Assembly (NCBI GenBank): GCA_950072105.1
Contig: CATMOE010000052.1
Span: 1 to 26,002 of the forward strand
Length of the DNA: 26,002 nt
Source: an uncultured Dehalococcoidia bacterium
GTDB taxonomy: Bacteria > Chloroflexota > Dehalococcoidia > Lucifugimonadales > UBA3495
Direction of reading: 5' to 3'
Within the stretch, counting starts at the first letter, position 1. The number at the start of each line of letters is the position of its first letter. The notes beneath the pieces are model-generated. The model had not been told where the DNA came from. It saw only the letters and a program-made list of their open reading frames with translations, and did not search any database. Below are positions 7,496-17,074 of this stretch, in pieces. A program made the translations under genes and the position numbers.

Positions 7496-8146
7496 TTAGG
7501 GCTGGGGAAAGGCTTCCGCCCCTAGTAGTGGGACGAACCTGCAGGGACCCAGCACGCGCAACGACAACCCTTCATCCGTGCGGCGGGCCTGAACCAATTC
7601 TTGTTGGGACAATGTCCCTACCGGAATCACCAATCGCCCGCCGATCGCCAGTTGGGAGATCAAGGATTTGGGCAGTCGAGGCGCCGCGGCGGTTACGATG
7701 ATGGCATCATATGGGCCTTTGGAAGGGCAGCCCAGCGAGGAGCCGGCCAATTGCACTTCCACGTTGCGATAGCCCAACTCTTCAAGCCTCTGGCGAGCCT
7801 GTTGCATCAGGGCTGGAACTCTTTCCATGGTGACTACCCGCCCTCTGGGCGTCAGCGCCGAAAGAATCGCTGTTTGATAGCCGCTGCCCGTTCCAATCTC
7901 CAGCACTCTGTCGCCGCCGGAGAGTTCCATGGCCTCGGTCATCATGGCCACGATATAGGGTTGGGAGATCGTCTGCCCTTCTCCGATACTCAGGGGCAAG
8001 TCCAGATAGGCCATGTGGCGGCTGTCCTGAGGCACGAACCGCTCTCGGGGCACCTGCTCCATGGCGCGTATTACTGTTTCTGACGATATATTCCGCAGCA
8101 ATTTACGGAATAGCTCTCGCTTCGAATCAACCTGGCTTCTATCCAT
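7496..8146 (-). CDS. pcm: Protein-L-isoaspartate O-methyltransferase
   Basis: VPRERFVP, IGEGQTISQPYIVA, VLEIGTGSGYQTAIL, PYDAIIVTAAAP, GGRLVIPVG, CRFVPL. Start is ATG 8146 or GTG 8161. Confidence 0.96.
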   Translation of the reverse strand: MDRSQVDSKRELFRKLLRNISSETVIRAMEQVPRERFVPQDSRHMAYLDLPLSIGEGQTISQPYIVAMMTEAMELSGGDRVLEIGTGSGYQTAILSALTPRGRVVTMERVPALMQQARQRLEELGYRNVEVQLAGSSLGCPSKGPYDAIIVTAAAPRLPKSLISQLAIGGRLVIPVGTLSQQELVQARRTDEGLSLRVLGPCRFVPLLGAEAFPQP

Positions 8147-8170
8147 GCGAAAACATCTCACGATATATCC

Positions 8171-8179: not shown

Positions 8180-8245
8180 CGAGACTCCATTCCCAACGAT
8201 AAAGGCACTGCCGGCGGGGCCCAGCGACTTGCATGAGTCCTCGCA

Positions 8246-8274
8246 TTGACGCTAATCTATCCCTATGATAGTCT
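8246..8274 (+). promoter_or_regulatory. Sigma70-type promoter for the HTH regulator / heme cluster
   Basis: TTGACG (8246-8251)-N17-TAGTCT (8269-8274), with TG at the extended -10 position. Confidence 0.7.
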
Positions 8275-8300
8275 CAAAACGTCTCGGCTTTGCTTTGTAA

Positions 8301-8320
8301 GTTTCTATAGGTTTCTATAG
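8301..8320 (+). repeat. Perfect 10-bp tandem direct repeat (GTTTCTATAG x2), candidate operator
   Basis: Seen directly. It is in 10-bp phase with GTCTC at 8271 and 8281. Confidence 0.8.
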
Positions 8321-8326
8321 ATTTTG

Positions 8327-8944
8327 ATGCTTGAATCTCCACAAGAAAAATCCAAATGGCTCACCATGCGCAACGCCTGCCGTCTGTTGGACGTGAATGA
8401 GGCGACGCTCCGCCAATGGGCCGATAACGGTCACCTGCGAGTGTACCGCACGCCCGGAGGCCATCGCCGCTTCTTGAGCGAAGATGTTATGTCTTTCACC
8501 AACACCGCCCGGACGGACGCCGGCCGCGCGCCGGAATACGAGGTGGAAGGGTCGGCGTTACGGCTGATACGCCGGCGTTTGCAGGGGGAGTCGGTGACCC
8601 GGCAGCCTTGGTACCAGAGTGTACAAGAGGACGGACGGGACCGTATGCGTCTATTTGGACGCCGGATGCTCACCCTGCTGGTTCACGAGCCGCAAGTTCG
8701 CCGCCAACGCCAGGAAGCTCTGGCCGAGTCTAATGTCTTAGGCCGGGAATACGGCGCCGAGATGTCGGAGAAAGGAGTTTCTCTGAAGGACACCCTGGAA
8801 GCTTTGGTGTTCTTTCGTTCCATGGTGCTGGACTCGTCCAACCCTAAGTCCTGGAGCCACATTCTTGAGCTCGCCGACCGGGTCATGGTGGGAGTCGCCG
8901 AATCTTACGAGACTCAATCGGTTCAAACAGGATCAGGGCCTTAA
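8327..8944 (+). CDS. BldC/Xis/MerR-like winged-HTH (HTH_17) DNA-binding protein with an uncharacterised helical C-terminal domain
   Basis: N-terminal WLTMRNACRLLDVNEATLRQWADNGHLRVYRTPGGHRRF. The C-terminal ~140 aa look all-helical. Start is ATG 8327 or TTG 8324. Confidence 0.85.
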   Translation: MLESPQEKSKWLTMRNACRLLDVNEATLRQWADNGHLRVYRTPGGHRRFLSEDVMSFTNTARTDAGRAPEYEVEGSALRLIRRRLQGESVTRQPWYQSVQEDGRDRMRLFGRRMLTLLVHEPQVRRQRQEALAESNVLGREYGAEMSEKGVSLKDTLEALVFFRSMVLDSSNPKSWSHILELADRVMVGVAESYETQSVQTGSGP

Positions 8945-9025: not shown

Positions 9026-10084
9026 ATGGACCTAACCGACCGGAAGCTGCTTAACATTATTCAGAGCAAATTTCCTCTCGTCGACCGTCCCTACTTGGAA
9101 CTGGGCAATGAGCTGGGCATCGACGAAGGCGAGATAATAGATAGGCTGGCCGACTTGAAAAAGAAGAACGTGCTGCGCCAGCTCAGCGCCATCTTCGACA
9201 CCCGACGCTTGGGCTACAAAACGACTTTGGTGGCCATGGCCTTTGAACCGGACCAACTGAATAAGGGCGCCCTGCGCATCAATAAGCATCCCGGTGTCAG
9301 TCATAATTATGCCCGGGATGGCTCTTATTTCAACCTGTGGTTCACCCTGGCGGTCCCGCACGACCACGACCTGGAGTCCACCGTGCAACGGATGGGTCAA
9401 GATACCAAAGCCCTCAGCTATCGCATGATGCCCACGATCCGTTTCTTCAAGATTGGCGTCAACTTCGACATGGTCAAACAGAAGGGATCGTCGGTCAACT
9501 ACAGCCCCGACGGCTACTCCGGGTCGGAAAGAACAGGCTGGAACGAAGCCGTTCCGATAACAGAAGACGACAAGGCCGCGATTCGAGAACTCCAGGAAGA
9601 CCTCGCCTTGATCCCCCGGCCTTTCGACGATATGGCCCAGCGATTGGGTAAAACTACTGATGAGCTGTTCGCCACCGTCCAGGATTTCCAAGACCGGAGG
9701 TTCATGCGCCGGTTCAGCGCGGTCCTACACCATCGGCGGTCCGGATTCAGCGCCAATGCCATGATCGTGTGGAAGGTGCCCGAAGAGCGGGCCGAAGAGG
9801 TGGGCATGACCATGGCCCAAAACACCGCCGTTACCCACTGCTACGAGAGACCCACCTTCCCTGACTGGCCCTACACTCATTTCACCATGGTCCACGCCAC
9901 CTCAACAGAGGGTTGTGAGGAGATTGAGCGGGAGATCAGCGAGGCCACCGGGATCACCGAGCGGTTGCTGCTTTACAGCAGCCGCGAATACAAGAAAACT
10001 CGAGTGCGTTACTTCGTGCCCGAGTACGACCAATACCAGGATGCCGTGATTTCCGCGCCTACCCCCCTGGCGCAAAGAGGTTAG
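9026..10084 (+). CDS. ahbAB: Fused siroheme decarboxylase AhbA-AhbB (NirDL/NirGH-like, Lrp/AsnC fold)
   Basis: Two tandem halves: FPLVDRPY...HPGVSHNYAR...NLWFTL and RPFDDMA...HHRRSGFSANAM...VTHCYERP...WPYTHFTMVHA. AAGGAGG SD upstream; sits at the head of the hem genes. Confidence 0.9.
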   Translation: MDLTDRKLLNIIQSKFPLVDRPYLELGNELGIDEGEIIDRLADLKKKNVLRQLSAIFDTRRLGYKTTLVAMAFEPDQLNKGALRINKHPGVSHNYARDGSYFNLWFTLAVPHDHDLESTVQRMGQDTKALSYRMMPTIRFFKIGVNFDMVKQKGSSVNYSPDGYSGSERTGWNEAVPITEDDKAAIRELQEDLALIPRPFDDMAQRLGKTTDELFATVQDFQDRRFMRRFSAVLHHRRSGFSANAMIVWKVPEERAEEVGMTMAQNTAVTHCYERPTFPDWPYTHFTMVHATSTEGCEEIEREISEATGITERLLLYSSREYKKTRVRYFVPEYDQYQDAVISAPTPLAQRG

Positions 10085-10087
10085 AAC

Positions 10088-10828
10088 GTGCCGGCTTACT
10101 ATCCCGTTTATCTAAATCTAACCGGCAAGAAATGCCTGGTATTCGGCGGCGGTCCCATCGCCGAGGATAAAATCGCCAAATTGCAGAGCAGCGGGGCGCG
10201 AATCACAATCGTCAGCCCAACTGTCACACCAAACCTTCAAGCCTGGGCTAATAGGGGCGACTTCCAATGGCAGCCCCGTGAATACCAAGCCGGGGATCTG
10301 GAGGGCGCTTTCCTGAGCATCGCCGCCACCAACGATCGGCAAGTGAACCACGAAATATTCCAAGAAGCTGAACGTCTGGGTGTCCTGATGAACGTGGTGG
10401 ACGCCCCGGAACAGTGCACCTTCATCGCTCCCGCCATCGTGCAGCGCGGTCAGGTTACTCTGGCCATTTCCACCGGGGGCGCCAGCCCGGCCCTTGCCCG
10501 CAAACTGCGGGAGGCCCTGACCGAAGACCCAGTGCTGGAGTGGGCTGACCTAGCCGGTGTACTCTCGTTGGCCAGAAAAGAAGTGAAAAAGCGGAGGCTG
10601 ACCATCGACCCCCAACGATGGCAGTGTTGTATCACCACCGAACTGCTGCGATTGGCCCAAACAGGTCACGAAGACCAGGCGTTATCAAGCCTACTCTTCC
10701 GCCTGACCGATCCAAACGCGCCGGGATTATGCCAGAACCTGGAAAGCTGCAGCGCCAAGAGATGCGGCGCCGGTTCCGAAGTGCTTTCTGGCATATCCTC
10801 CGGCGTATCTAGTATGGAACAAGCTTAG
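10088..10828 (+). CDS. sirC: Precorrin-2 dehydrogenase / sirohydrochlorin ferrochelatase (SirC/Met8/CysG-N type) with Cys-rich tail
   Basis: YPVYLNL, GGGPIA NAD-binding motif, AATND, NVVDAP..CTF, AISTGGASPALARKLRE. GTG start. Confidence 0.92.
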   Translation: MPAYYPVYLNLTGKKCLVFGGGPIAEDKIAKLQSSGARITIVSPTVTPNLQAWANRGDFQWQPREYQAGDLEGAFLSIAATNDRQVNHEIFQEAERLGVLMNVVDAPEQCTFIAPAIVQRGQVTLAISTGGASPALARKLREALTEDPVLEWADLAGVLSLARKEVKKRRLTIDPQRWQCCITTELLRLAQTGHEDQALSSLLFRLTDPNAPGLCQNLESCSAKRCGAGSEVLSGISSGVSSMEQA

Positions 10829-11767
10829 TTGGTCTCCAGCAAAGTCATAAAGGTCGGCAGCCGGGGCAGCAAACTGGCATTGATTCAGGCCGAACAGGTG
10901 CTCGTCCGGCTTCGTCAGCTATACCCTGATCGAGAATTCGAGGTTGTCATCGTCCGAACACAGGGGGACATCAACAAAGAAGCTCCCCTGCAAGGGATGG
11001 GCCTTGGCATATTCGTCAAAGAGATTGAACGTTTGCTTTTGGACGGCGAATTGGACATGGCGGTCCATAGCCTGAAAGACCTGCCGACCACCCTTCCGGA
11101 TGGCCTAGTCCTGGGCGCCATGCTACGCCGGGAAGACCCCCGGGACGTCCTGGTGAACCGCTGGAACTGCCCGTTGGCCCAATTGCCCGAAGGGGCCCGC
11201 ATCGGCACCAGCAGTCCCCGGCGCCGTGTGTTGCTGAATACCTTGTGCCCCCAGGCCACCGTCCTACCCATCCGCGGCAACGTAGACACCAGGCTCAGTA
11301 AAGCCCAGGGAGACGACTACGACGGCGCCGTTCTGGCCGCGGCCGGTTTGATCCGGTTGGGCTTGACCGAGCACATCTCCGAATACTTGTCCCCCCAACG
11401 GTTCGTGCCTCCGCCCGGCCAGGGGGTTCTGGCAGTGGAGATACGCGCTGAAGACTACCGCATGCAGGATATGCTACGCGCCATAGAGCACACCACTACT
11501 CGGCTGGCGGTCACCGCGGAACGGGCATTTTTGGAAAAATTGGGGGGCGGTTGCCAGTTACCCATGGGCGCTTACGCCAGAGACGAGGGAGATATCCTCT
11601 ACATGACCATCTTCCTCAGCTCGCCCGATGGCAAAAAAGCCTTTCGCGCCAAGATTGACGGCCTAACCATGGACCCACTGCAACTGGCCACCGATGCCCA
11701 TCTGGCGGTGGTGGAACGCGGCGGCGGACCGCTTCTGGAGATCGAATGGTCCGAGGTAGAACCCTAA
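10829..11767 (+). CDS. hemC: Hydroxymethylbilane synthase (porphobilinogen deaminase)
   Basis: GSRGSKLALIQA, AVHSLKDLP, GTSSPRR, IRGNVDTRL, LGGGCQLP (cofactor Cys). TTG start directly after the sirC stop. Confidence 0.97.
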   Translation: MVSSKVIKVGSRGSKLALIQAEQVLVRLRQLYPDREFEVVIVRTQGDINKEAPLQGMGLGIFVKEIERLLLDGELDMAVHSLKDLPTTLPDGLVLGAMLRREDPRDVLVNRWNCPLAQLPEGARIGTSSPRRRVLLNTLCPQATVLPIRGNVDTRLSKAQGDDYDGAVLAAAGLIRLGLTEHISEYLSPQRFVPPPGQGVLAVEIRAEDYRMQDMLRAIEHTTTRLAVTAERAFLEKLGGGCQLPMGAYARDEGDILYMTIFLSSPDGKKAFRAKIDGLTMDPLQLATDAHLAVVERGGGPLLEIEWSEVEP

Positions 11768-11778
11768 GGTAAGCGTTA

Positions 11779-11881
11779 TCCCTTCCCCCTCGATGGGGAA
11801 AGCCTAGAGCCTGCCCTGAGCGCAGCCGAAGGGATGGGGGTAATACCACTCTCCTCAATCCGCTTCCAAATGGAGAGAGGA
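11779..11881. repeat. Composite REP-like palindromic element
   Basis: Hairpin TTCCCC-CTCGAT-GGGGAA, an embedded GAGCCTGCCCTGAGCGCAGCCGAAGG unit, a GGATGGGGGT tail and a degenerate CTCTCC...GGAGAG partner, all in the hemC-cobA spacer. Confidence 0.6.
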
Positions 11882-11906: not shown

Positions 11907-13469
11907 TTGAAAATCTCGACTAAGTCACTTGGGAAAGTATTTCTGGTGGGAGCCGGTCCCGGCGACCCTGGTCTGATCACACTGAAGGGATTGCGGTGTT
12001 TGGAGAAAGCCCAGGTGGTCATCTACGACCGGTTGCTGGATTCGTCTTTGCTAGAGTCGGCCCCTGCTTCGGCCGAGCGGATCTTCGTCGGCAAGGAACG
12101 GGGCCGTCAAGAGCTGAACCAAGACCAGATCAACGAACTGCTGATCGACCGGGCATCCGAGGGAAAAGTTGTCGTACGCCTCAAAGGCGGCGACCCCTTC
12201 GTCTTTGGCCGGGGAGGAGAAGAAGCCCTAGCCTTAACCGGAATGGACATTCCATTTGAGGTGGTGCCCGGAATCACTTCGGCCATCGCCGCGGCCGCCT
12301 ATGCCGGAATCCCTCTGACCCATCGGGGAATATCCACGTGTTTTACCGTGGTCAGCGGTAGCGAAGATCCCGCCAAACCGGAAACCTCGGTCAATTGGCA
12401 AGCCCTGGCCCGCACCGGGGGCACCCTGGTGGTGTTGATGGGCTGGTCTGCCTTGGAGTCTATCCTAGACACCTTGGGGAAAGAGGGTGTGCCCGTCGAT
12501 ACCCCGGTGGCGTTGGTGCAGTGGGGCACCTGGCCGGCTCAAGCCACCGTCACCGGATGCCTGGAAGACATCTTGGAACGGGGCCGAGAGGCCGGGATCC
12601 AACCGCCGGTTATCGCGGTCATCGGCCCGGTGGTATCCCTGCGGAGTGAGCTTGCCTGGTTCGACCGCCGGCCTCTGTTCGGCAAGAAGGTGCTCATAAC
12701 CCGCTCCCGTACCCAAGCGTCAAAGTTACGTTCGCTACTGGAAAATTTGGGCGCCCAAGCCTTTGAGATTCCCGCCATACAGACGGCGCCCCTGGAAGAT
12801 TACGCCCAACTGGACGAGGCTGTCGCCAAGCTAAAGGATTACCGATGGGTAATCTTCGCCAGCAGTAACGCCGTCGACGCCGTGTTTGGCCGGCTGTACC
12901 ATCAAGGTCTGGACACCCGGGCCCTGGGAGGCGTTAAGGTGGGCGCGATCGGCCCCGCTACCGCCGATGCTCTGGCCCTCCGGGGTATCGCCGCCGATTT
13001 CGTTCCAACACGGCCCATATCCGAAGTCGTTGTCCAAGAGTTGTCAAGTTTTGACTGGACCGGCGTGCCGGTATTGCTGCCGGTGGCGGATATCGGCCGG
13101 GACGCGCTGGCCACGGGGCTCACACAGGCCGGAGCTCTGGTGGACCGGGTCGACGCCTATCGCACAGTCCCCACCACCGGAGTCGACGCCAAGGCCCGTG
13201 AAGCCCTTTCCCAAGGGATGGACGTGGTGACATTCACCAGTTCGTCCACGGTACGCAATCTGGTGGAGATGCTGAACGGTGACCGGGCCTCCCTGGACGC
13301 TACCAGCATCGCCTGTATCGGTCCCACCACCGCCGCCACCGCCCGGGAATTGGGACTGCGCGTCGATCTGGTAGCCGCCGAACACACCGTAGAGGGCCTG
13401 GTTAGCGCCCTGGTAACCCATTTTGCCGAAGCCAAAAACGTTGAAGAAGGAAGCCCTACAAATGGTTAG
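11907..13469 (+). CDS. cobA-hemD: Fused uroporphyrinogen-III C-methyltransferase / uroporphyrinogen-III synthase
   Basis: VGAGPGDPGLIT, RLKGGDPFVFGRGGEE, VVPGITS, then a HemD half with VLITRS, AIGPATA, FTSSSTV, CIGPTTA. GGAGG lies just upstream of the TTG. Confidence 0.96.
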   Translation: MKISTKSLGKVFLVGAGPGDPGLITLKGLRCLEKAQVVIYDRLLDSSLLESAPASAERIFVGKERGRQELNQDQINELLIDRASEGKVVVRLKGGDPFVFGRGGEEALALTGMDIPFEVVPGITSAIAAAAYAGIPLTHRGISTCFTVVSGSEDPAKPETSVNWQALARTGGTLVVLMGWSALESILDTLGKEGVPVDTPVALVQWGTWPAQATVTGCLEDILERGREAGIQPPVIAVIGPVVSLRSELAWFDRRPLFGKKVLITRSRTQASKLRSLLENLGAQAFEIPAIQTAPLEDYAQLDEAVAKLKDYRWVIFASSNAVDAVFGRLYHQGLDTRALGGVKVGAIGPATADALALRGIAADFVPTRPISEVVVQELSSFDWTGVPVLLPVADIGRDALATGLTQAGALVDRVDAYRTVPTTGVDAKAREALSQGMDVVTFTSSSTVRNLVEMLNGDRASLDATSIACIGPTTAATARELGLRVDLVAAEHTVEGLVSALVTHFAEAKNVEEGSPTNG

Positions 13470-14445
13470 CTATCCAGATCTACGATTACGCCGGGTCCGC
13501 GAGCACGAACCTCTCCGGAGAATGGTCCGTGAAACCACCCTGTCGCCGTCCAACTTTATCTACCCGATGTTCGTTACCCACGGTCAGGGATTGCGCCTGC
13601 CCATAGAACCCATGCCCGGCTGCTTTCACTTCTCCATCGATCAACTGGTACTCGACGTTGCCGAGGCGGCCGCCTTGGGGATTCCCGGCGTACTGCTCTT
13701 TGGATTGCCCGCGGAAAAGGACCCGATGGGCACCGAAGGATACGATCCGGAAGGAATAATCCAGGAAGCGGTGCGGGCCATCAAGAAAGAAGTACCCGGC
13801 ATGATGGTTATAACCGACGTGTGCATGTGCGAGTACACCGACCACGGCCACTGCGGCATCATCGACAACGGTAAGGTGGACAACGACGCCACGCTGGAAT
13901 TGCTGGCCAGAACGGCCGTAACACAGGTACAGGCCGGCGCCGACATGGTTGCGCCATCGGCCATGATGGACGGTCAGGTAAAAGCCATCCGAGACTCCCT
14001 GAACGACCACGGTTACAAAGATGTGCCGGTCATGGGTTACGCCGCCAAATACGCTTCGGCCTTCTACGGACCCTTCCGGGTAGCGGCCGGTTCGACCCCC
14101 CAGTTCGGCGACCGCCGTAGCTACCAGATGGACCCGGCCAACGCCCGGGAAGCGATGCGTGAGATTGAAAGCGACATCGCCGAGGGCGCCGACATCGTCA
14201 TGGTCAAACCGGCCATGTCCTACATGGACGTGATTCGCCGGGCCCGAGAGAAGTTCGACCATCCCCTAGCCGCCTACAACGTCAGCGGCGAGTACTCCAT
14301 GGTCAAGGCCGCCGGAGCCCTAGGCTGGATCGACGAAAAGCGGATCACCCTAGAGATCCTGACCTCCATAAGAAGAGCCGGCGCCGACTTTATCCTCAGC
14401 TACCACGCCAAAGAGGTGTCTCAGTGGCTGAGGGACGCGGAGTAA
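13462..14445 (+). CDS. hemB: Porphobilinogen synthase (Zn-dependent ALA dehydratase)
   Basis: RLRR, DVCMCEYTDHGHCG (Zn-binding Cys triad), APSAMMDG, SAFYGPFR, MVKPA, AYNVSGEY. The ATG at 13462 overlaps the end of cobA-hemD and is preferred over 13423. Confidence 0.97.
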   Translation: MVSYPDLRLRRVREHEPLRRMVRETTLSPSNFIYPMFVTHGQGLRLPIEPMPGCFHFSIDQLVLDVAEAAALGIPGVLLFGLPAEKDPMGTEGYDPEGIIQEAVRAIKKEVPGMMVITDVCMCEYTDHGHCGIIDNGKVDNDATLELLARTAVTQVQAGADMVAPSAMMDGQVKAIRDSLNDHGYKDVPVMGYAAKYASAFYGPFRVAAGSTPQFGDRRSYQMDPANAREAMREIESDIAEGADIVMVKPAMSYMDVIRRAREKFDHPLAAYNVSGEYSMVKAAGALGWIDEKRITLEILTSIRRAGADFILSYHAKEVSQWLRDAE

Positions 14446-14553: not shown

Positions 14554-15831
14554 ATGCAACAGGCTAAATCAGAAGAACTTTTCGCCAAGGCCCAAAAGTA
14601 CATCCCCGGCGGGGTCAATTCGCCGGTTCGTTCTTTCCGCGCCGTTGGCGGTACGCCTCCCTTCATCGCCAGGGGCAGCGGTTCCCACATCTGGGATGCC
14701 GACGGCAACGAATACATCGACTATCTGGGGTCGTGGGGACCCTTGGTGTTGGGCCACGCCCATCCAGCGGTGGTGGATGCTCTGATAAAAGCCGCGGAAG
14801 GAGGCACAAGTTTCGGCGCGCCGGTGGCCCAAGAGGTGGACTTGGCCCGTTTTATCTGCACTTCCATGCCTTCGATCAACATGATCCGTTTGGTCAACTC
14901 CGGCACGGAAGCCTGCATGAGCGCTATCCGGCTGGCCCGTGCCCATACCGGAAGGGACAAAATCATCAAGTTCGCCGGTTGCTACCACGGCCACGCCGAC
15001 GGCCTGCTGGTGAAGGCCGGCTCCGGGGCCATGACGCATGGTATTCCTACCAGCGCCGGTGTTCCCGAGTCTTATGCCAGCGAAACCCTGGTTGCCGACT
15101 ACAACGATTTATCCTCGGTTGAAGAGGCGTTCGCCGCCTTTCCGGAAGACATAGCGGCGATCATCGTGGAGCCCGTGGCAGGAAACATGGGAGTGGTCCC
15201 ACCTGCGCCCGGCTTTCTAGAGGGACTGCGCCGTATCACCCAGGAGCACGGAGCGCTGCTGATCTTTGACGAGGTTATCACCGGTTTTAGGCTGAACGCT
15301 GGCGGCGCTCAGGCCCTGTTCGGCATAACTCCCGACCTGACAACTCTGGGCAAAATCATCGGCGGCGGTCTTCCGGTGGGGGCTTACGGAGGCAGACAAG
15401 AGATCATGGAGTTGGTGGCGCCTTTGGGGCCCATGTACCAGGCGGGCACTCTCTCCGGCAACCCCTTGGCGGTCGCCGCCGGATTGGCAACTCTGCAAGA
15501 GTTAACGCGCCCCGGGACCTATGAACAGCTGGAGTCCATGGCTGCCCGGTTGACCCAAGGGTTGACCGAAGTCTTCGATCGCAAAGAGGTGCCCTCGACC
15601 ATCAACCGGGTCGGCTCCATGTTCACCGGTTTCTTCAACGACGGTCCCGTGGCCAGCCTGGCCCAAGTGGAGCAGTCCGACGTTCCCGGCCACGCCCGGT
15701 TCTTCCACGGCATGCTGGAGAACGGGGTATACCTGGCTCCTTCCCAATTTGAAGCCGGATTCATCTCCCTGGCCCATACCGAGGAAGATATCGACCGCAC
15801 GATCGAGGCGGCAGAGGCAGCCTTGGCGTAG
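14554..15831 (+). CDS. hemL: Glutamate-1-semialdehyde 2,1-aminomutase
   Basis: [63 protein letters not shown]. Confidence 0.97.
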
Positions 15832-16600: not shown

Positions 16601-17074
16601 TTAAGAACCGTAGCGGGCAGCGGCGTTGGGGTCACTGTATTCCACGTTCTTGGTGGCCCAAAAGGCCGTGGCAACGGCGTCTACCGCAGCTACGAGTTCT
16701 TCGCAGGCGGCCATGTCCACGTTCTGCTTGCAGCGTCCGGCCAGCTTTAACGCGGCGTTAAAGCTACCGTGCAGGTCGAAGCCTGCCGGCATGTTTGGCC
16801 AGGCGTAGTCGGCCCATAGGATGCTCAGTTCTTTCTTGCATATCTCCGCGTGCTCTTCTTTGACGGTAACGTACCGGGCAATCTTGTTGACATAGTCTTG
16901 GCGGGCCGCGGCTTCCCCACTGGGGCCGGGGGATTCAAGGGCCTGGATCCGCAATACCATTTTTTGTACCGTCTGCGCAGCTATCTTCGCGGATATCGGG
17001 TCATATATCCCACAAGGGATATCACAATGGGCTTGAGCCCTCGGAACCCTCAACCATGTTAGCGGGTTAAACAT
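16601..17074 (-). CDS. sodN: Nickel superoxide dismutase precursor
   Basis: Ni-hook [11 protein letters not shown] after a 15-aa leader ending AQA; KEEHAE..K.EL..LW.DY; FWATK. Confidence 0.96.

Follow-up and report, generated by a model that had tools for sequence, protein, structure and literature searches.

CarH represses transcription at direct repeats and carries two B12-binding motifs, W-x9-EH and E/D-x-H-x-x-G. In BldC, DNA binding and head-to-tail contact involve residues V23, T27, W31, T42, G44, H46, R47 and R48 (PMC5859096). As for heme feedback in coproporphyrin-route bacteria, section 2.1 of a review names only HemX and two-component systems (PMC10991733). Here we describe a gene, hereafter the regulator, at the head of a heme-synthesis gene run in an uncultured Dehalococcoidia bacterium. 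Its product is a new combination of two known modules, a BldC-type HTH and a predicted globin, with a well-supported predicted operator, and it is a real protein, conserved across Chloroflexota and apparently uncharacterised. The window, i.e., the whole stretch of DNA that was analysed, is 26,002 nucleotides long and contains the following features.

8246..8274, + strand: predicted sigma-70-type promoter, with -35 element TTGACG (8246-8251), 17-bp spacer and TG-extended -10 element TAGTCT (8269-8274), from the sequence and its relatives
8281..8282, + strand: likely transcription start, 7 nt after the -10 element and at RNA-library contig ends
8297..8326, + strand: predicted operator of three 10-bp direct-repeat units, GTAAGTTTCT, ATAGGTTTCT and ATAGATTTTG, ending at the ATG start codon
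8327..8944, + strand: regulator gene, an ORF of 205 aa
8357..8500, + strand: BldC/Xis-type winged HTH, residues 11-58 (Pfam HTH_17, E 2.5e-9; superposition on BldC 6amk)
8528..8923, + strand: predicted non-heme-type sensor globin domain, residues 68-199 (AlphaFold2 model, fold matches, conservation)
9026..10084, + strand: ahbAB, fused siroheme decarboxylase (NF040708 and NF040707 both over cut-off)
10088..10828, + strand: sirC / CysG N-terminal type precorrin-2 dehydrogenase (TIGR01470 over cut-off)
10829..11767, + strand: hemC (TIGR00212 over cut-off)
11907..13469, + strand: cobA-hemD fusion (TIGR01469 and Pfam HEM4)
13423..14445, + strand: hemB (NF006762 over cut-off), its start codon probably some codons further in
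14554..15831, + strand: hemL (TIGR00713 over cut-off)

An earlier note on this DNA had placed an ORF at 8327-8944 ahead of a co-oriented run ahbAB-sirC-hemC-cobA/hemD-hemB-hemL; the ORF was confirmed, and family scans identified each gene of the run. In the RNA libraries of two studies, contigs start at 8281 and 8282, a weak hint at the start site, as these are strandless contigs only, with no DNA control. One such contig spans 8281 to 10248, from the regulator through ahbAB into sirC, which agrees with a shared transcript of these genes. The RNA runs containing the stretch are marine or vent metagenomes. On the upstream side, pcm (isoaspartate methyltransferase; window 7496-8161, - strand) is the divergent neighbour of the regulator, and it lies near the regulator in 19 of the best 80 GTDB loci, probably as synteny. 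A nickel superoxide dismutase gene (TIGR02753 over cut-off; window 16601-17074, - strand) converges on the operon end. Between hemC and cobA-hemD lies a palindromic repeated element of about 64 bp (window 11778-11841), REP- or MITE-like. BLAST gave 14 further matches to it elsewhere in the genome (up to 94% identity), and contigs from the RNA runs contain many partial ones. The hemA gene lies apart from the run (G000:C8:31459-32772, - strand), directly ahead of a cobalamin-type gene cluster, and has its own promoter-like sequence without the repeat; many relatives keep hemA inside the operon.

The N-terminal domain of the regulator matched Pfam HTH_17 and MerR above their cut-offs, and it scored 48.5 bits against the NCBIfam BldC model (NF033787), below the cut-off of 77. 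The likeness to BldC claimed in the earlier note was borne out: the BldC stretch it quoted is present in PDB 6ama/6amk, and the regulator HTH aligns to it gap-free and in the same numbering. In addition, the HTH model superposed on BldC 6amk with Z 8.0 and an rmsd of 1.3 Å over 52 residues. T27, W31, T42, G44, H46, R47 and R48 were invariant in 41 members of the regulator family, and V23 was nearly so. Having a second domain within its 205 aa, the regulator falls outside the HTH-only definition of the BldC family. Its best sequence match in the PDB was 8jbs, confined to the HTH. The score against the CarH/LitR model NF052513 was 17.7 bits (cut-off 400), no B12 Pfam match was found in the regulator, and both CarH B12 motifs are absent from the protein, as the note had said. 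A B12 or bilin photoreceptor was rejected as a reading because the corresponding motifs are absent.

Relatives of the regulator numbered 1392 at E<=0.001 among 1759 candidates, and the family comprises 423 clusters (50% identity, E<=1e-30). The whole protein matched 195 of 401 Chloroflexota genomes, and the C-terminal domain profile alone matched 183 of the 401, mostly once and with up to four copies. Where source records name these relatives, the names are excisionase-family or HTH protein; three family records carry Bacteroidota or Rhodothermales labels, given here as in the records. Among proteins of 290-2000 aa, none matched the sensor domain at E<=1e-5, which is weak evidence, and an atlas search gave a best cosine of 0.83, to be taken as a lead only. 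Full-text searches of the open literature listed no paper on the family. Note that family f53 often has two to four regulator copies, and that at one locus (L177, G088:C90) two family matches lie on opposite strands with about 1 kb between them; one of them leads to chdC, and hemA is on the other side.

Gene neighbourhoods were examined in a phylum sample of 99 loci, at most 7 per family, among the 149 matches listed (74 further matches lay beyond), where neighbour genes were labelled by profiles checked against Pfam and NCBIfam. Among the matches listed, a same-strand tetrapyrrole gene adjoins the regulator at 52 of the 99 loci (one short hemD was added by hand), a convergent hemH at 1 and a PUCC-type transporter at 6, and 40 have no tetrapyrrole neighbour (2 cut by contig ends); the tetrapyrrole gene often overlaps the regulator stop codon. 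By family, again among the matches listed, at least one hem-linked locus occurred in 26 of the 37 sampled and the regulator was detached from hem genes in 11, with all sampled loci of f29, f31, f42 and f63 lacking a tetrapyrrole neighbour. The best 80 GTDB loci were hem-linked in 70 cases, 49 of them with ahbAB (three loci repeat phylum-sample genomes). Among 80 metagenome loci, of unassigned taxonomy and from a different subfamily alignment, a hem gene was present at 30, a PUCC-type gene at 5 and neither at 45, and 20 of these 45 have less than 1 kb downstream. Linkage to tetrapyrrole genes, on which the earlier reading depended, is therefore conserved in the phylum sample and in the best GTDB loci. 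The first gene after the regulator varies (ahbAB, sirC, hemA, ahbC/D, hemY or chdC), so that the link to hem genes survives rearrangement.

On the other hand, the family is not specific to the Ahb/siroheme route in which the note had placed the regulator. The 52 linked loci among the matches listed comprise 9 with ahbAB, 19 with hemE/hemH/hemY and 24 with early genes only, so that the regulator also heads coproporphyrin-route operons. An Ahb-specific regulator was ruled out by these neighbours of both routes and by an ahbD-like gene in one genome without the early pathway. The link of the regulator is to tetrapyrrole synthesis as a whole and is not confined to the Ahb branch. In terms of genomes, 28 of 176 with the regulator had no hemC match, and 139 with hemC had no regulator match.

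Several further neighbours were recorded. PUCC-family MFS transporters stand beside the regulator or beside hemA/hemY at L135, L147, L148, L168, L174, L179, L409 and L235-L244 (f33, f29), and also in G258, a genome without a hemB or hemC match; they are candidate tetrapyrrole transporters. At L140, L167, L183 and L197 the regulator heads a family-5 ABC transporter, with hemY between in two, a candidate for porphyrin or aminolevulinate uptake. At eight Dehalococcoidia loci (L060, L073, L082, L089, L093, L095, L346 and L350) the regulator is placed after a riboflavin operon and dinB and before a HAD hydrolase and dnaN; hem genes stand in between at some of them and not at others.

De novo counting and a tandem-repeat matrix on the upstream regions gave a repeat unit RYAGRTTT with a period of 10. 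A predicted site was present in 95 of 120 hem-linked upstream regions; its period was 10 in 82 and 9 in 13, matching the BldC-like direct-repeat period of 9-10 bp. AGATT at 9-11 bp spacing occurred in 25 of the 120 regions, whereas none of 20 shuffled sets had it in more than 3. The three operator units of the window scored 7.7, 13.1 and 14.2 in order, and the two-unit score was 27.3 against a shuffle 99th percentile of 11.4, a score that is in-sample because near relatives trained the matrix. The site at 8297-8326 was the best in the 4.08-Mb genome, the next scoring 21.3 and 8 sites reaching 19 or more. GTCTC at 8272 and 8282 was considered as extra repeat units and discarded on matrix scores of -5.9 (8277) and -20.2 (8287); since the units at 8277 and 8287 score negative, the operator comprises three. 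This predicted operator is a direct repeat like those to which BldC binds, and it lies inside the region that the note put forward for EMSA (8240-8330).

An out-of-sample test was provided by regions upstream of hemC in 40 regulator-positive and 20 regulator-negative genomes, from which six loci were dropped: L237 and L253 because they were cut short, and L245-L248 because the regulator heads the operon there (three of these four have a site). A site was counted when it scored >=15 within 300 bp of the first hem gene, a gene assigned from labels that may be wrong in places. Such a site preceded the hem operon in 18 of 35 detached-regulator genomes versus 0 of 19 genomes without the regulator; in the latter, the best score anywhere upstream on that strand was 14.9, and one of them (G359) has a weak domain match. 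Given that genomes within a family are not independent, the count by family was 4 of 9 with a detached regulator against 0 of 17 control families. Specifically, the site was present in f42 (7/7), f33 (7/9), f63 (3/4) and f66 (1/1), and none was found before the hem genes of f29 (0/8), f49 (0/2), f14 (0/2), f38 (0/1) and f20 (0/1). One genome scored as a miss (G043) has a divergent regulator and a site of 23.2 located 1 kb further up. Most detached regulators of f42 and f63 have no repeat before them, yet the hem operon does have one; the repeat therefore follows the hem genes. The repeat at detached hem operons is the best evidence for a DNA-level regulon, and on these sequence comparisons we consider it very probable that the regulator controls hem genes through the repeat.

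Strict-pattern scans were also run genome-wide. In one genome (G138) a match lies directly before an unlinked hemE. Scans of ten genomes returned 31 matches, most of them within ORFs or beside unrelated genes. Two sites, one divergent from a gene for cytochrome c assembly (G258) and the other from a Tet-like MFS gene (G263), may be chance. No repeat was found before hemA and chdC of the present genome, where the scores were 4.6 and 7.1, and this counts against a master role of the regulator in this genome.

For the C-terminal domain, the note had quoted a residue pattern (GREYG...AESY), present as quoted, and had proposed a globin-like fold of RsbRD-N type, which AlphaFold2 fold matches and weak RsbRD_N profile alignments support. 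AlphaFold2 gave a confident two-domain model of the whole regulator (mean pLDDT 86.4) with a flexible linker at 62-68, and the C-terminal domain alone reached a mean pLDDT of 90.3. Its best fold match was pXO2-61 (Z 11.2, rmsd 3.2 Å, 121 residues), and further matches were a 3zta stressosome chain (Z 9.1), RsbR-N (8.1), MabR-N (8.0), a cyanobacterial globin domain and allophycocyanin (8.4), and globin-coupled sensors (7.3-8.4). Z alone is not decisive, because a designed bundle (Z 10.9) and two membrane proteins (9.6 and 8.8) rank among the matches and the values are moderate for a helical domain. The globin matches span the whole domain (residues 68-199), and nearly all Foldseek rows were globins, with nothing at E<=0.001. 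As for sequence, a PDB search with the sensor-domain profile gave a best E of 0.58. RsbRD_N and Rsbr_N matched weakly in 7 and 5 of 93 members, far below the Pfam cut-off (best E against PF14361/PF08678 0.0018, in 7 of 93). Profile-profile alignment to RsbRD_N gave E 0.003 at a probability of 9.6% against 11 sequences, and alignment to protoglobins was not significant (E 0.21). Note that the genome also encodes a protoglobin-family protein (G000:C38:14801-15295), unrelated in sequence to the regulator.

Conservation over 93 sequences was high at W95 (92%), R104 (77%), R108 (89%), G111 (98%), G139 (80%), G143 (81%), G150 (83%), A159 (84%), F163 (91%), R164 (96%) and D184 (84%). The domain has no conserved His, Cys or Met in these sequences, and no alignment column has His in more than 16 of the 93 rows. 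Helix-F/G motifs were read against protoglobin and RsbRD_N alignments, of which only the RsbRD_N alignment approached significance. By this motif mapping, the proximal-His position would fall at residue 146, which is Ala, Leu, Met or Ser and His in 0 of 93. By its modelled fold, the C-terminal domain is a predicted non-heme-type sensor globin, in which small residues take the places of the His and the bulky contacts of heme globins.

One alternative accepts that hem genes are regulated through the repeat and supposes that the globin domain senses something other than a tetrapyrrole, such as a fatty acid, another hydrophobic metabolite or a partner protein. Signals of this kind have been proposed for RsbR-type and pXO-type non-heme globins, and the best fold matches of the domain are pXO2-61, 3zta, RsbR-N and MabR-N, with weak RsbRD_N and Rsbr_N profile matches in addition. 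It has no conserved axial ligand, and RsbR-family globins bind fatty acid through an Arg (PMC8717448 section 3.2). However, the proximal-position Arg of RsbRD_N is not kept at position 146, and the genes found beside the regulator and at repeat sites belong to both tetrapyrrole routes or encode PUCC-type transporters. We judge this reading unlikely, though by no means negligible.

A second alternative is that a holo-protein with a Tyr-ligated heme cofactor reports oxygen or redox state, so that heme synthesis would be matched to respiration rather than to heme level. The globin fold agrees with it, Y142 is present in 81 of 93 sequences (87%) with His instead in 6, and the conserved Arg104 and Arg108 could hold propionates. 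On the other hand, Y142 maps by the same motif reading one turn before the canonical proximal site and corresponds, in our reading, to a His of non-heme RsbRD_N domains, and there is no conserved distal His or Cys. We therefore regard a heme-cofactor sensor as improbable.

The arrangement of the promoter bears on the direction of control. The same arrangement (TTGAC-17 bp-TG.TAG..) occurs in most close relatives; a consensus promoter scanner reported no + strand site at its threshold, and the prediction rests on the comparison with relatives. In the window and most relatives, the predicted sites lie downstream of the -10 element, which is a repressor position. MerR-activated promoters have a 19-20 bp spacer (PMC5859096). 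In the classical activator layout a palindromic operator is placed within that spacer, and the 17-bp spacer with repeats downstream of the -10 element departs from this layout. These features speak against the protein being an activator, or a ligand-free factor whose globin domain only dimerises and whose repeat sets a fixed autoregulatory level. The conserved glycines, R164 and D184 could indeed be purely structural, as such a factor would have them, but we give this reading a little less credit still than the heme cofactor. Repression is inferred over activation because the site lies at about +17 to +46, and from this predicted layout we consider that the regulator probably represses.

The repeat contains AGG, and in many cases it runs up to the start codon. 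Sites are also found 120-160 bp upstream, opposite-strand copies occur near the promoter in 5 loci, and no RNA structure was detected in the leader (z 0.87); the opposite-strand copies and the structureless leader favour a DNA site. A role of the repeat in translation initiation or as an RNA element, with the gene position at hem operons being inherited synteny without regulatory meaning, might be suggested by the AGG at start codons and by the families with a detached regulator. This reading is very improbable given the absence of the repeat from the hem operons of the sampled regulator-free genomes, the distant and opposite-strand sites, and a link that survives changes of the first downstream gene.

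We thus propose that the regulator is a one-component repressor dedicated to the genes of tetrapyrrole (heme) synthesis, and that it also represses its own gene. By analogy with BldC (PMC5859096), its protomers would bind successive 10-bp units head-to-tail, and the bound site would block early transcription of the operon and the regulator gene. The globin domain would bind a late tetrapyrrole, most likely heme b or coproheme, and thereby change assembly on DNA; end-product co-repression is the simplest logic, and induction by an intermediate is also possible. Taken as a whole, a one-component hem repressor with BldC-type binding on repeats, tuned by a late pathway product, is the best explanation and one we favour by a modest degree. 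A tetrapyrrole as the signal, bound in the globin domain, is a more tentative proposal, to which we give slightly less than even weight, with heme b or coproheme as our best guess for the ligand.

One genome is informative about the signal. In G057 (a single contig, 99% complete), which has no hemB or hemC match, the repeat and the regulator head an AhbD-like radical SAM gene (473 bits, cut-off 500) and a TRAP transporter (L425:1793-7694), and a CbiX-type chelatase gene is divergent from this unit. This locus, from one genome, points to a late or imported tetrapyrrole as the signal, not an early intermediate, and it is in keeping with a signal that all routes and salvage share, i.e., coproheme or heme b. 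The unit is itself a candidate for porphyrin salvage. On the other side, the regulator is retained in three f31 genomes that have neither hemB nor hemC, where it stands beside peptidase-like genes, and these genomes, together with the repeat-free hemA and chdC here, count against a late-tetrapyrrole signal.

The pathway downstream of ahbAB appears to have a gap. The known scheme requires AhbC to get from didecarboxysiroheme to coproheme. None of ahbC, ahbD, hemE and hemH was found in this genome (92% complete). Among 61 genomes of the order, 26 have ahbAB; hemE and hemH were found in 0 of these 26, a ChdC-family gene in 25 and a strong AhbC-like match (E<1e-100) in only 4, and the TIGR04546 cut-off was reached by 0 of the 61. 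With the models used, 22 of the 26, this one included, show a ChdC-family gene but none of ahbC, hemE and hemH in recognisable form, and the 22 ahbC-less ahbAB genomes include four single-contig ones (G419, G436, G445 and G446). Since the AhbC step is needed and ahbC was not recognised, these Dehalococcoidia may have a missing heme-synthesis step carried out by a new deacetylase, or another end product.

The most far-reaching form of our proposal joins these strands. It holds that an undescribed, phylum-wide, one-component heme-feedback repressor would read heme b or coproheme through a His-less globin with a conserved Tyr/Arg pocket, that its BldC-type filament would be assembled or released on hem-operon repeats for either terminal route, and that marine Dehalococcoidia without a known AhbC would imply a new enzyme or end product; as a complete statement, we hold this to be speculative and rather unlikely to be right in every part. 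With a conserved single protein as the regulator and a predicted operator, the transcriptional control of heme synthesis becomes open to direct test across Chloroflexota, in cultured genera as well as in marine Dehalococcoidia. If true, the proposal would mean that ligand-gated proteins with a globin sensor also use the BldC mode of binding, and the non-heme sensor globins, which are mostly orphans, could gain a ligand. The operator matrix can also serve to find unannotated tetrapyrrole genes, for example the adjoining PUCC-type and TRAP transporters.

Among known systems, HrrSA and ChrSA of Corynebacterium, for which section 2.1 of the review describes heme-responsive repression of hemA and late hem genes (PMC10991733), are alike in the proposed logic, but they are two-component systems, and the regulator is one cytoplasmic protein with unrelated domains. 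BldC of Streptomyces shares the winged HTH, with DNA-contact and head-to-tail residues in the same register, and its target, an AT-rich direct repeat of about one helical turn, resembles the predicted site of the regulator (PMC5859096). In contrast, BldC is a 68-residue HTH without an effector domain, and the regulator has a 130-residue globin domain after the HTH. The base-reading Arg30 of BldC is Gln in the regulator (Arg29 is invariant), the repeat is RYAGRTTT rather than AATTXXXXC, and the predicted targets are hem genes. CarH/LitR and the photocobilins (PDB 5c8d, 8jbs, 8j2w) likewise fuse a MerR-like HTH to a sensor, which in their case binds a tetrapyrrole; the regulator differs from CarH/LitR in its lone globin sensor without a B12-binding domain and in its predicted hem-gene targets. 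The closest predicted fold (Z 8.0-11.2) is that of pXO1-118/pXO2-61 (3pmd, 3pmc), RsbR-N (2bnl), RsbRD_N (PF14361) and MabR-N (9fb1). These non-heme sensor globins share with the regulator a G/H-helix pattern, including an Arg matching R164, and the lack of a proximal His, yet none is fused to a BldC-type HTH, and MabR has the order globin-GGDEF-HTH and controls mycolic acid genes (PMC11617747). Photoglobins and phycobiliprotein globins share the globin fold, and theirs can hold a linear tetrapyrrole (PMC8717448); photoglobins also occur fused to MerR/HTH_17, as in the regulator. The photoglobin criteria in section 3.2 of that paper are a distal Asp, often with Cys, Ser or Thr three residues before, and association with a B12 domain (PMC8717448), whereas helix 101-119 of the regulator has no conserved Asp or Cys, and the protein is a stand-alone HTH-globin without a B12 domain.
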